Assembly (NCBI GenBank): GCA_016719015.1
Contig: JADKAZ010000006.1
Location: 101,835-165,834, forward strand
Direction of reading: 5' to 3'
DNA: 64,000 bases
Source of the DNA: Chitinophagaceae bacterium
Lineage (GTDB): Bacteria; Bacteroidota; Bacteroidia; Chitinophagales; Chitinophagaceae
Below the pieces are notes generated by a model. The model did no database searches, was not told where the DNA came from, and saw only the letters and a list, made by a program, of their open reading frames with translations. The translations under genes and the position numbers were made by a program. This document shows positions 57,810-62,427 of the stretch, piece after piece. Every line of letters begins with the position of its first letter. Position 1 is the first letter of the stretch.

Positions 57810-58430
57810 ATGCAATTTTCCTCTTCCCTTTTAGAAAATGCCGTCAATGAATTTGCCAAACTTCCCGGTATTGGCAAAAAGACGGCTTTACGGTTGGTAT
57901 TGCATTTATTAAAGCAGGATACCAAAGAGGTAGGACAGTTTAGCGAAGTCATAGCCCGGATGAGGAGTGAAATTAAATTTTGTCAACGTTGTTTTAATGT
58001 AGCGGATGGAGATATTTGTTCTATCTGTGCCAATTCACTAAGAAAACAGGAAGTGATTTGTGTGGTGGAAAGTATCCGGGATGTGATTGCCATTGAAAGC
58101 ACACAGCAATTCAACGGAACCTACCATGTATTGAACGGGGTTATCTCCCCGCTGGATGGCATTGGCCCCGACCAATTGAATATCGAATCATTAATCAATC
58201 GAATTGAAAAAGAGAAGACAGAAGAATTGATCTTTGCATTGAACCCCAACATACAAGGTGACACCACTATCTATTATATTCAGAAGAAGTTACAGCCTTT
58301 CAGTATCCGCATCACTACTATTGCCCGTGGTATTGCCTTCGGCGGCGAACTCGAATATGCCGATGAAATGACCCTGGCAAGAAGTCTGCAAAACCGCCTC
58401 CCCGTTGAGAGTTATGTCTCTAACCGGTAA
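57810..58430 (+). CDS. recR: Recombination protein RecR
   Basis: LPGIGKKTALR, C4 zinc finger, YHVLNGVISPL TOPRIM domain, ELEYAD. Confidence 0.97.
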   Translation: MQFSSSLLENAVNEFAKLPGIGKKTALRLVLHLLKQDTKEVGQFSEVIARMRSEIKFCQRCFNVADGDICSICANSLRKQEVICVVESIRDVIAIESTQQFNGTYHVLNGVISPLDGIGPDQLNIESLINRIEKEKTEELIFALNPNIQGDTTIYYIQKKLQPFSIRITTIARGIAFGGELEYADEMTLARSLQNRLPVESYVSNR

Positions 58431-58465
58431 GTCCCGCCCCGCTTGTTTATTATACCTATATAACT

Positions 58466-58473
58466 TAGCTTTG
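58466..58473 (+). promoter_or_regulatory. Bacteroidota -7 promoter element of the metH leader
   Basis: TAGCTTTG about 11 nt before the riboswitch P1 stem. Confidence 0.65.
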
Positions 58474-58484
58474 CTGCCATACTA

Positions 58485-58534
58485 CAGGCGGATTTGTTTA
58501 TTGTTCGGCCTGCTCTAAACAAGAACTAATAAAC
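58485..58534 (+). ncRNA. SAM-II-class riboswitch (H-type pseudoknot)
   Basis: P1 CAGGC/GCCTG; GAUUU loop; GUUUAUUGUUC (58496-58506) pairs with GAAC-U-AAUAAAC (58523-58534) with one bulged U; lies upstream of metH. Confidence 0.8.
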
Positions 58535-58589
58535 GTACGAGACTCCCTCCACGGTTTCCCAACGTTTATAGTTCGCAAACATTCATTGT

Positions 58590-59591
58590 ATGAAAACAAT
58601 TCAGGATTGTTTGAAAGAACGCATTTTAATTATTGATGGTGCTATGGGCACTATGATTCAACGCCACAAACTAACCGAAGCAGATTACCGTGGCGAAAGG
58701 TTTAAAGACTGGCAGTGTGATGTAAAAGGCAATAATGATCTGCTGAACATTACACAACCACATATCATTACCGCAATACATAAGGACTACCTGGATGCAG
58801 GTGCTGATATTATTGAAACAAATACTTTTAGCAGCACTACTATTGCAATGGCTGATTATGAAATGCAGTCGTTGGCTTATGAATTAAATGTAGCTGCAGC
58901 CAGGTGTGCTAAAGAAGCTATTAAACAATCCGGTAAACAGGCATGGGTAGCTGGTGCTATCGGGCCATTAAATAAAACATTATCACTTTCTCCCGATGTA
59001 AACAATCCGGGCTTCCGTGCTGTTACATTTGATGAAGTGGTAAATGCCTATTATGAACAGGTAAAAGGATTGGTAGATGGCGGCGTTGATATTTTGCTCA
59101 TAGAAACCATATTTGATACACTGAATGCAAAAGCGGCCATCTTCGCCATTAAAAAATATTTTAGGGATACAAAGCAAGAAGCCTTGCCAATCATGATCAG
59201 TGGGACGATTACTGATGCGTCTGGCAGAACACTCAGCGGGCAAACTCTTGAAGCTTTCTACACTTCTATCATGCATGCCAAACCAATCAGTGTTGGCCTG
59301 AACTGTGCATTAGGGGCAAAAGAAATGCGACCCCATATTGAGGAACTTTCACAAATAGCCAGCTGTTATGTATCGGCCTATCCCAATGCGGGTTTACCCA
59401 ATGCTATGGGAGAATATGATGAACACCCCGAAGACACCGCCCACTACCTGGAAGATTGGGCAAAGGAAGGCTGGGTGAATATTGTAGGCGGCTGCTGTGG
59501 CACTACCCCTGATCATATCAGGCATATTGCACAGGAAGTAAAAAATATTACACCCAGGCAATTACCCGTAGTAGAAAAAGAATTAGCATGA
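58590..59591 (+). CDS. metH: Methionine synthase, N-terminal homocysteine S-methyltransferase half
   Basis: [36 protein letters not shown]. Confidence 0.95.
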
Positions 59592-59686
59592 CCACTCCCC
59601 AACTACTGATATTAATATCTCTCCTTATACTTGTAGTGAACAACTTTTCATTTATAAAAAAGCTGTTTGTAAAAAAGAATTCATAA
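59588..59686 (+). CDS. Putative 32-aa hydrophobic small protein, absent from the ORF track
   Basis: [32 protein letters not shown]; ATGA overlap upstream and TAA-ATG abutment downstream. Confidence 0.55.
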
Positions 59687-62427
59687 ATGCACGACACAGT
59701 TGTTATCAAACCGTATTTAAGATTAGCCGGATTAGAGCCATTGGTTGTAAGACCGGAAACTAATTTTGTAAATGTTGGTGAAAGAACGAATGTAACAGGT
59801 TCGAAAAAATTTGCCCGCCTCATCAAGGAAAATAAATACGAAGAAGCATTAAGTGTAGCAAGGCAACAGGTAGAGAATGGAGCCCAGGTACTCGATGTAA
59901 ATATGGATGATGCCTTATTAGATGGTGTGCTGGCAATGACCACTTTCCTGAACCTGGTACAAAGTGAGCCGGATATTGCTAAGATTCCGATCATGATCGA
60001 CAGCTCCAAGTTCGGGATCATTGAGGCGGGATTAAAATGTGTACAGGGAAAGTGTATTGTAAACTCTATTTCTATGAAAGAAGGCGAAGCTAAATTCATA
60101 GAACAGGCCATTATTTGCCAGAGCTACGGTGCATCAGTTATAGTAATGGCATTTGATGAAAAAGGACAAGCTGATACCAAACAACGCAAAGTAGAAATTT
60201 GCCACCGTGCCTATAAAATATTGACAGAACAGGTGGGCTACGATCCGCAGGATATAATTTTCGATCCTAATATTTTTGCTATTGCCACCGGTATGGAAGA
60301 GCATAATAATTATGGTGTTGATTTTATAGAGGCTACCAAAGAAATAAAACAACTGATGCCTTTAACGAAAGTTAGCGGTGGTGTCAGCAATCTTTCTTTT
60401 GCATTTCGTGGAAATGATCATGTACGGGAAGCCATGAACAGTGTGTTTCTTTTTTATGCCATCAAGGCGGGTATGGACATGGGTATAGTAAATGCGGGAC
60501 AGTTAGTTGTGTATGATGAAATAGAACCGAAGCTGAAAAAGCTTTGCGAAGATGTAATTCTTAACCGCAATAATGATAACAATGAAGCTACTGAAAGCCT
60601 GATCGCTTTTGCCGAAACAGTAAAAGCAAAAGGAAAAGAAAATATAAAAGATGAAAGCTGGAGAGAAACTTCAGTAGAAGAAAGGTTAAAACATTCTTTG
60701 GTAAACGGAATCACCGATTATATTGATGCGGATACTGAAGAAGCCAGAAACAAATACCCAAAACCTCTTGATGTTATTGAAGGCCCGCTGATGGATGGTA
60801 TGAATGTAGTGGGAGATTTATTCGGAGCTGGTAAAATGTTTTTACCACAGGTAGTAAAAAGTGCAAGGGTGATGAAAAAATCGGTAGCCGTTCTCACTCC
60901 TTTCATTGAAGCCGAAAAAGAAGAAAGAAAACAGGCACATCTCGCTGCCGGTACTATTAATGAAGAAGCTGCCGGGGCGCCTAAAGTTTTACTGGCAACG
61001 GTAAAAGGCGATGTGCATGATATTGGTAAAAACATTGTAGGTGTTGTATTGGGCTGTAATGGTTACGACATTATTGACCTTGGTGTAATGGTGCCAACAG
61101 ACAAAATTTTAGATACGGCTGATAAGGAAAATGTTGATATAATTGGCCTCAGTGGCCTTATTACTCCCTCCCTGGATGAAATGGTGCATGTGGCACATGA
61201 GATGAAACGCCGTGGCATGAAACAACCATTGTTGATCGGCGGCGCTACCACTTCGAGAATGCATACGGCAGTAAAAATTGCGCCGCAATATGACAATGGG
61301 GTATTGCACATTCTTGATGCATCCAGAAGTGTAACGGCGGTTAGCACCTTACTCAATAAAGAACAACGCAGCTCCCTGCTTCAGCAAACACAACATGAAT
61401 ATGAAGAGCTCCGCAACCAGTTTTTGAATAAGAACAAAAAAACGCTGATTCCCTATAGTGAAGCGGTTGTTACCAAAGAGTATTTTGACTGGAAAAATTA
61501 TACCCCGACCAGGCCTGCCGTAGACGGTGTGAAAGTGTTGAAGGATTTTGATCTGGCTACCATTGCCCGGTATATTGACTGGGGACCTTTCTTTATCGCC
61601 TGGGAAAATGCCCGGTCGTTTCCTGAAGTACTATCAGATAAAATTTTCGGTGTCGAAGCTACCCGTCTTTATAATGATGCAACAAAGATGGTGGAGCAAT
61701 TGGTAAAAGAGAAATGGTTCATGGCAGATGGTGTTATTGGATTCTGGCCCGCCGCCAGTAATAATGCAGATACGGTAACCTTACAAACAAGTACAGGAGA
61801 AGTAAAACTTGAATCACTCCGGCAGCAACTAAAGAAAGCTGTTGGGCAACCCAGTTATTCATTAGCTGATTTCATCAAACCAACGCAAAACAGTTCCCCG
61901 CTTGGCGATGGCGACACCAACGGAGATTACATGGGTGCATTCGCTGTTACCATTCATGGTGCAAAAAATATATTGACCAGTTTGCTGCTGATCATGATGA
62001 ATACAATAAAATACTGGTGCAAATATTGGCTGACCGTTTTGTAGAAGCCTTTGCAGAATGCCTGCATGAAAAAGTGAGAAAAGAATACTGGGGTTATGAC
62101 CAAAACGAAACATTGACCAATGAACAAATGATACGGGAAGAATATAAAGGTATCCGGCCCGCACCAGGCTATCCGGCCTGTCCCGACCATACAGAGAAAA
62201 TTAAATTATTTGATTTATTGAATGTTACAGAAAACATCGGCATTGAAATGACTGAAAGCCTAGCTATGAATCCACCGGCTTCTGTTTGCGGCTGGTATAT
62301 CGCTCATCCGCAAAGCCATTATTTTGGTTTGGGTAAAATTGGTAAAGACCAGCTGGAAGATTATGCGAACCGAAAAGGAATGAGTTTGGAAGAGGCGGGG
62401 AAGTGGTTAAGGCCGGTGCTGGAATAA
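59687..62427 (+). CDS. metH: Methionine synthase, C-terminal pterin/B12/activation half, frameshift near 61965
   Basis: [36 protein letters not shown]. Confidence 0.95.

Follow-up and report, generated by a model that had tools for sequence, protein, structure and literature searches.

A conserved pseudoknot with a competing hairpin in the metH leaders of Chitinophagales, a candidate relative of the riboswitches SAM-II and SAM-V

The stretch of DNA analysed here, the 64,000 nucleotides (nt) from a Chitinophagaceae bacterium called the window in what follows, carries directly upstream of a split metH gene, which encodes B12-dependent methionine synthase, a leader whose transcript forms an H-type pseudoknot of striking conservation. 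The same element lies in more than 200 distinct metH leaders of the order Chitinophagales. We consider it probable that the metH leader (about 58480-58589) is a metabolite-sensing riboswitch, and that its aptamer is an undescribed variant branch of the structural clan that comprises the riboswitches SAM-II and SAM-V, both of which respond to S-adenosylmethionine (SAM). Judging from its pocket, the ligand is most likely SAM, S-adenosylhomocysteine (SAH) or a close relative being possible. In most copies a further strand competes for the 3' arm of the pseudoknot, a platform that is not described for this clan. A bolder proposal, which we advance tentatively and hold less likely true than false, is that the element constitutes a third separate class of the clan and its first activating (ON) member, in which an A-to-U replacement in the pocket perhaps shifts the specificity towards SAH or another adenosyl-sulfur compound.

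The leader and the gene that it precedes are organized as follows, in coordinates of the window and with P1 and P2 for the paired regions and L1 and L3 for the loops:

58466..58473, + strand: promoter -7 box TAGCTTTG, which fits the Bacteroidota consensus TAnnTTTG; a presumed promoter
58485..58489, + strand: 5' strand of P1, CAGGC, complementary to 58508-12
58490..58496, + strand: L1, GGAUUUG, the presumed third strand of a triplex, equivalent to G5-G11 of SAM-V
58496..58506, + strand: 5' strand of P2, or A-box, GUUUAUUGUUC; 58500-06 is the counterpart of A18-C24 in SAM-V
58508..58512, + strand: 3' strand of P1, GCCUG, which pairs with 58485-89
58513..58522, + strand: L3, CUCUAAACAA, of variable length and with an A-rich 3' end
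58523..58535, + strand: 3' strand of P2, or B-box, GAAC-U-AAUAAACG; the bulged U58527 is the counterpart of U47 of SAM-V, and U58530 lies at the position of SAM-V A50
58539..58558, + strand: inner stem-loop GAGACU...GGUUUC between the B-box and the C-box, from minimum-free-energy folds
58562..58574, + strand: C-box ACGUUUAUAGUUC, the competitor strand, which pairs with 58523-36 and has an extra A opposite U58527
58575..58592, + strand: translation initiation region GCAAACAUUCAUUGU, which includes the metH start codon (58590-92); the hairpin has its foot at -16, and -13 to -11 are A-rich
58590..59591, + strand: the regulated gene, an open reading frame (ORF) for the N-terminal, homocysteine-binding half of the split metH; a second ORF, 59687-62044, encodes the C-terminal half

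The first-pass annotation, made from the letters of the window, had read this leader as a pseudoknot RNA controlling a Bacteroidota metH, and all the sequence features that it named are where it placed them. The promoter that it proposed, TAGCTTTG, is present at 58466-73; CAGGC and GCCTG of P1 (58485-89 and 58508-12) are complementary; the GAUUU that it saw after P1 is part of GGATTTG at 58490-96; and an H-type pseudoknot does precede metH in Chitinophagaceae. P2 has the 11 base pairs (bp) and the single bulged U58527 that had been ascribed to it, the loop of P1 (GTTTATTGTTC, 58496-506) pairing with GAAC-U-AATAAAC (58523-34), and nucleotides 58497-98 can be regarded either as a short linker or as a P2a-like extension. 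The competing hairpin that it described as mutually exclusive with the pseudoknot is likewise present, and conserved as well: ACGTTTATAGTTC (58562-74) pairs with 58523-36 and encloses the stem-loop 58539-58. The B strand thus pairs either with the A strand, to form the pseudoknot and its pocket, or with the C strand, to form the hairpin, and never with both; the two structures are mutually exclusive because both need the B strand. The calculated duplex energies are -10.2 kcal/mol for A:B and -13.5 kcal/mol for B:C, and the whole hairpin (58523-75) reaches -17.7 kcal/mol. The leader is more stably folded than its own shuffles (z = -2.98). When B pairs with C, the additional A that the C-box contains (AUAG against AUUG) pairs with U58527, in the very place that the adenine of a ligand would occupy. 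The third strand could also pair, though weakly, with the inner loop (AAACUCC), an idea that was dropped.

The H-type pseudoknot, in which the loop of P1 pairs with a downstream strand, is backed by covariation, one of the checks that the first-pass annotation had put forward. In alignment A3, which comprises 91 diverse aptamer sequences and was compared with 500 shuffles and with slid controls, compensatory double changes occur at all six aligned pairs of P1. P2 is 98.8% paired and holds two compensatory pairs, C58506-G58523 being replaced by U-A in seven sequences and U58497-A58533 by C-G in two sequences (family f11), while its other changes are wobble-compatible. The observed covariation score was reached by none of the 500 shuffles and by no slid control.

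Several searches delimit the distribution of the element. BLAST of the leader gave significant matches in 35 of 36 genomes of the same genus (73-91% identity), and the approximately 36 same-genus matches for which the neighbouring gene was examined all lie directly before metH. There is one copy per metH locus, such that genomes with two metH loci carry two. With a first covariance model (R1), matches turned up in 52 of the genomes of the family, out of about 59, spread over some 30 genera, and weaker matches in other families of the order. In an exact-pattern scan of the genomes of 185,579 species, at least 120 matches were obtained; among those listed, nearly all belong to Chitinophagaceae or Chitinophagales, including the genera Ferruginibacter, Sediminibacterium, Chitinophaga, Puia, Niabella, Segetibacter and Flavihumibacter. 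Finally, a model restricted to the aptamer (R2) and applied to 401 genomes of the phylum detected one copy per genome, always in a metH leader and only in Chitinophagales. No gene besides metH emerged from this search of 401 genomes, which therefore yields no further clue to the ligand.

The most constant parts of the leader are those expected to shape the pocket. Among leaders of the same genus, blocks A (GGATTTGTTTATTGTTC) and B (GAACTAATAAA) are invariant and block C (CGTTTATAGTTC) is nearly so, its changes falling mainly at the bulge of the B:C duplex. Across more than 200 leaders, GAUUU is invariant, the G that follows it varies in single sequences only, the core of the B-box (ACUAAUAA) is invariant or nearly so, and the bulged U58527 is invariant, always in the context C-U-AA and opposite A58500-G58503. 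G58523 is invariant only where the competitor hairpin is present. L3 is between 4 and about 60 nt long and often contains a GC-rich hairpin of unrelated sequence (L014, L016, L019, L023, L027, L034 and others); such insertions are characteristic of RNA elements and do not sit well with DNA operator sites. The inner stem differs in sequence between genera and retains its pairing. Upstream, the TAnnTTTG box is conserved in relatives 12-14 nt before P1.

A common ancestry or a common design almost certainly links the leader aptamer to SAM-V and SAM-II. SAM-V (RF01826; metY and bhmT of 'Ca. Pelagibacter ubique'; structure 6FZ0) is also an H-type pseudoknot with a bulged U, and its crystal RNA, AGGCGCAUUUGAACUGUAUUGUACGCCUUGCAUAAAGCAAAAGUACUAAAAAAGG (PMC6061858 Table S1), can be aligned with the metH leader block by block (AGGCGCAUUUGAACUGUAUUGUACGCC...GUACUAAAAAAGG). 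P1 reads AGGC/GCCU in both. The third strand, GCAUUUG in SAM-V and GGAUUUG in the leader, differs at one position; the descending strand is AUUGUAC in SAM-V and AUUGUUC in the leader, the ascending strand GUAC-U47-AAAAAA and GAAC-U58527-AAUAAA, respectively, and the SAM-V pair A23-U44 corresponds to U58505-A58524, a compensatory change. In the SAM-V structure, U47 forms a pair with SAM's adenine, the U20:A48.U9 triple is turned towards the sulfonium, A50 (equivalent to A47 of SAM-II) binds the amino-acid moiety of SAM by a hydrogen bond, and A40-42 dock in the minor groove of P1, L3 accommodating an optional P3 (PMC6061858). All of these pocket residues have identical counterparts in the leader except A50, which is replaced by U58530; the A-rich 3' end of L3 and an optional P3-like hairpin are present as in SAM-V. 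U58530 is a U in every leader found and can form a Watson-Crick pair with A58500. In other riboswitch classes, substitutions at ligand-contacting nucleotides have gone along with altered specificity.

The two RNAs nevertheless differ in several respects. The linker between the third strand and P2 is 2 nt long in the leader and 5 nt in SAM-V; unlike SAM-V, the leader has one unpaired nucleotide between P2 and P1, its P2 can be extended to 11 contiguous pairs, and most of its copies possess a competitor strand for the whole 3' arm of P2. The hosts, soil and freshwater Chitinophagales, belong to a lineage different from that of SAM-V. Both elements are associated with methionine genes, and in the copies of the leader element that lack a C-box no more than about 13 nt separate it from the start codon, as in SAM-V. 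Copies of SAM-V have been found before metH in marine metagenomes (PMC2704228).

The resemblance extends to SAM-II (RF00521, the metA motif) and SAM-II long-loops (RF01726), which share with the leader the clan architecture, AUUUG, [A/C]UUG, C-U-AA and an A-rich L3. SAM-II long-loops is moreover hosted by Bacteroidota (Bacteroides, Porphyromonas, Gramella) and has, like the leader, a TAnnTTTG promoter just upstream. In contrast, the lower stem of P2 is GCA/UGC in SAM-II and SAM-II long-loops and GUUC/GAAC in the leader, and all but one of the SAM-II long-loops seed sequences examined have an A after CUAA, where the leader has a U; at least one seed sequence reads CUAAU. Where SAM-II has a terminator, it is a separate stem after P2 (PMC1273637). 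The SAH riboswitch (RF01057) is pseudoknotted too, has metH as a typical target and would be expected to activate it, but it bears no similarity to the leader in sequence or by model. The spermidine switch derived from SAM-I offers an analogy only.

Rfam does not recognize this relationship. Infernal against the Rfam families of the clan had been put forward as a check in the first-pass annotation, and no covariance model of SAM-II, SAM-II long-loops or SAM-V matched at E<=10. The search comprised 4227 Rfam models, including SAM-II, SAM-II long-loops, SAM-V, SAM/SAH and SAH. There was no relevant match to Rfam 15 at gathering thresholds in the whole 64-kb window, none to the SAM families at E<=10 in the leader (58380-58650), none at E<=10 in 16 diverse distant relatives, and no relevant one in 20 relatives with long leaders. 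RF01726 gave nothing above cut-off in 41 Chitinophagaceae genomes, although the Bacteroides control was detected; of two sub-threshold matches (L241 and L242), L241 proved to be unrelated sequence. No canonical SAM-II long-loops copy, with the A variant, exists in these 41 genomes, which consequently offer no contrast of A and U within one cell. The literature yielded no description of a metH riboswitch in Chitinophaga or Chitinophagaceae. The earlier statement that the leader matches the SAM-II core is thus only partly upheld: the pocket does agree with the SAM-V crystal sequence and the SAM-II long-loops seed, but an invariant U stands at the equivalent of A50.

A competitor for the B strand, with an energy of -7.5 kcal/mol or better, is found in 60% of 196 distinct leaders and in 2.5% of random windows. 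Depending on the presence and position of this competitor, the leaders fall into three types of platform:

Type 1: no C-box; B-box 0-13 nt before the AUG; Chitinophaga species and families f11, f19 and f21
Type 2: hairpin ending a constant 13-15 nt before the AUG, with no run of U; the present window
Type 3: hairpin, followed directly by U5-U8 and then by a 70-250-nt leader; many other Chitinophagaceae genera

In type 2, the constant distance between the hairpin and the AUG is maintained in 44-50 relatives. In type 3, according to minimum-free-energy folds of at least 13 leaders, which represent several genera, the stem has its foot at the equivalent of G58523 or beside it and ends 0-4 nt before the run of U. 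Among the leaders with a clear competitor, a run of U follows it in 26 of the 68 with a distant AUG, against 6 of the 50 with a near one. The absence of a U-tract that had been reported for the window is thus correct there but does not apply to many relatives, whose hairpin runs straight into a run of U. The modelled geometry of the type 3 hairpin looks like that of a canonical intrinsic terminator. Its 5' arm is the entire 3' strand of P2, and a pseudoknot locked by its ligand would therefore prevent termination. Aptamers on the different platforms differ at the P1/P2 junction only, and their pockets are alike.

No further partner for these strands came to light. In the leaders searched, no fourth strand is available to build a terminator of its own or to cover the start codon when the C-box is free, no strand other than B is complementary to the C-box, and the leaders without a C-box contain no conserved alternative pairing that would rescue activation by the ligand.

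At least 24 of 209 long metH leaders contain a second conserved element, downstream of the hairpin and the run of U and about 85-115 nt after the B-box (L063, L066, L068, L017, L044, L149 and L169 are examples), which is absent from the present window. It is made up of a variable hairpin and, after it, the sequence CUGUUG(U/C)GUC(A/G)CAC(U/A)CUU(G/C)(U/A)AC, often begins with a start-stop pair, AUG-UAG or AUG-UAA, and has no match among Rfam families. Such leaders may thus carry two regulatory RNAs in tandem, the aptamer and this element.

How the leader might work can be sketched by analogy with SAM-V. The loop of P1 (58496-506) pairs with 58523-34 to form P2, whose major groove presumably takes up the U-rich L1 (GGAUUUG) as in SAM-V, and the adenine of an adenosyl-sulfur ligand would presumably come to lie across from the bulged U58527. 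Whether pseudoknot or hairpin forms is probably decided while the leader is being transcribed and the C-box has not yet emerged. The hairpin would be the repressing state; with the ligand bound, the C-box would stay unpaired and metH could be expressed. The foot of the hairpin in the window (-16) abuts what is likely the A-rich landing region of an initiation site devoid of a Shine-Dalgarno sequence, and a conserved AAAC occupies -13 to -10 directly beside it. In Flavobacterium johnsoniae, the initiation region from -20 to +20 is low in structure and an A at -12/-13 is a positive determinant, and in Bacteroidia that region extends to about -20, the protein bS1 contacting the mRNA at -12 to -15 (PMC6847099). 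From the hairpins of types 2 and 3 and the lack of a fourth strand, it would therefore follow that the hairpin is the repressing structure and that the ligand activates. The nearest precedent is the adenine (pbuE/ydhL) ON riboswitch, which was reportedly characterized by Mandal and Breaker in 2004. As in the type 3 relatives, the 5' arm of its terminator is the 3' arm of the aptamer; its fold and ligand are unrelated, however, and the hairpin of the window, having no run of U, would act on translation. The terminator of classical SAM-II is, by comparison, a separate stem after P2 (PMC1273637). Hence the SAM feedback on metH proposed in the first-pass annotation stands as far as its target is concerned, but an OFF switch is not borne out, the terminator-like hairpin of many relatives pointing to activation. 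For the present window, we lean slightly towards activation of metH expression by ligand binding; conventional repression there is a serious possibility that falls a little short of an even chance.

Several observations weigh against activation or against the assignment to the clan. The modelled accessibility of positions -13 to +13 is the same in both states. In the type 1 leaders, the P2 that a ligand would stabilise abuts the AUG, which by analogy implies ligand-dependent repression, and platforms with the same pocket thus call for opposite signs. The known SAM-II and SAM-V switches are all OFF switches, and end-product repression is natural for a methionine synthase. As regards family membership, the Rfam models of the SAM families give the element no score, and on geometric reasoning the 2-nt linker may render the docked triplex sterically incompatible with the upper four pairs of P2.

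Much of this would be accommodated by a conventional SAM-sensing OFF switch in which SAM locks the pseudoknot and represses metH, the B:C hairpin being the permissive, SAM-free state; the effector in the bound state may be, for instance, attack by an RNase or loading of Rho on the exposed U/A-rich C-box. The pocket is that of SAM-V save for U58530 and includes the U:A.U triple facing the sulfonium, every known member of the clan is an OFF switch, metH is the only methionine synthase of the source genome, in which no MetE was found, and in relatives that lack a C-box P2 sits against the AUG, just as it does in SAM-V. What this explanation leaves unaccounted for is the competitor. The relatives in which the hairpin is followed by a run of U have the geometry of a canonical terminator with the 3' strand of P2 as its 5' arm, so that SAM would prevent termination; only the B strand is complementary to the C-box, and a free C-box leaves the modelled accessibility of the start region unchanged; and an OFF switch that has neither a terminator nor a sequestering structure downstream has no need of a competitor hairpin. 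On this balance, we hold the explanation as a whole to be a minority one, unlikely yet to be taken seriously. Rather unlikely, too, is a changed specificity, according to which the A-to-U replacement at 58530 abolishes recognition of the methionine tail, and SAH, methylthioadenosine or adenosine is sensed to activate metH for homocysteine recycling. U58530 is invariant where A50 of SAM-V hydrogen-bonds the amino-acid moiety; the regulon consists of metH only, the typical target of SAH riboswitches; the terminator-type relatives have a platform of the ON type; and the source genome encodes AhcY with no match to an SAH riboswitch (in a search whose controls gave no signal). Wang and colleagues are said to have presented metH as such a typical target in 2008. 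No change affects the residues by which the sulfonium cation is selected, however; SAH and SAM share the amino-acid tail, so U58530 alone does not explain a preference for SAH; at least one SAM-II long-loops seed sequence also reads CUAAU, and the change may be neutral; and ahcY itself has no copy of the element. The identity of the ligand is accordingly pulled in two directions, the intact SAM-type sulfonium triple favouring SAM and arguing against SAH, and the activating mechanism together with U58530 favouring SAH or an adenosyl compound devoid of a tail.

Explanations without a small molecule fare less well. The leader might be bound by a protein or another trans-acting factor, as in autoregulation by MetH or control by a regulatory RNA-binding protein, and the extreme invariance over 17 + 11 nt and the control of a single gene would be consistent with it; but the invariant residues match the small-molecule pocket of SAM-V one-to-one, which is hard to call coincidence, and we regard such a factor as improbable. 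Most remote of all is the idea that the three similar and strongly conserved boxes (GTTTATTGTTC, the complement GAACTAATAAAC and GTTTATAGTTC) are DNA operator sites downstream of the promoter. This idea is disfavoured by the covariation of P1 as RNA, by the spacing between the first and second boxes, which can be as short as 4 nt or as long as about 60 nt owing to inserted hairpins that are unrelated in sequence, by the absence of the third box from many lineages in which the other two are invariant, and by the inner stem, which changes its sequence and keeps its pairing.

The SAM-II/SAM-V fold is among the smallest natural metabolite sensors, and a branch of it that spans an order, represented by over 200 distinct copies in bacteria common in soil and fresh water, has been missed by all 4227 Rfam models; the regulation of metH in this lineage is therefore not captured by Rfam-based annotation. 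In a phylum that does without Shine-Dalgarno sequences, a competitor acting on the aptamer's own 3' arm takes the form of a terminator-like stem in certain genera and that of a start-proximal hairpin in others. Should the ligand activate, the element would be the first activating member of the clan and would change the view of methyl-cycle control in Chitinophagales. Should it repress, the element would provide a useful extension of the family models and a natural test case for translational riboswitch control that operates without Shine-Dalgarno pairing.

The genomic setting bears on what such a switch would control. MetE was not found in the source genome, which is 99% complete; therefore the split MetH, which is B12-dependent, is its only methionine synthase, serving both de novo synthesis and recycling in the methyl cycle. 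The genome also encodes an SAH hydrolase (AhcY), whose gene lacks a copy of the leader element, and four cysteine/methionine enzymes dependent on pyridoxal phosphate (PLP). SAM-I and cobalamin riboswitches have no match in the source genome. RF01057 has none in the leader or in the source genome, the genome-wide negative being weak since the controls of that search gave no signal.

The metH locus itself varies among relatives. In the window, a micro-ORF for a hydrophobic peptide of 32 amino acids (59589-59687) exactly fills the gap between the two halves of metH: its ATG overlaps the upstream stop codon (ATGA), and its TAA abuts the ATG of the downstream half. The peptide is kept in several genomes of the same genus (L022, L024, L026, L033 and L034), and other relatives have just 5-17 nt between the halves. 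Some genomes of the same genus possess two split-metH loci, each with its own leader element: G031 (contigs C4 and C5), G005 (C288 and C236) and G022 (C3 and C18). In L095 and L098 (family f11), the element precedes an ORF that begins like the C-terminal, pterin- and B12-binding part of MetH (PYLRLSGLE) and not like the homocysteine-binding half; the order of the metH genes or the split between domains therefore differs in these two. Lastly, in the leader L008 (G013:C30) an insertion of about 100 nt lies upstream of metH and downstream of the C-box; it contains a long perfect inverted repeat (GCATGATTGAAGTAAACATT...AATGTTTACTTCAATCATGC) and stands directly after the original ATGAAA, with ATGAAA repeated at the new start. 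This insertion, which resembles a small mobile hairpin element, comes between the presumed riboswitch and the start codon.

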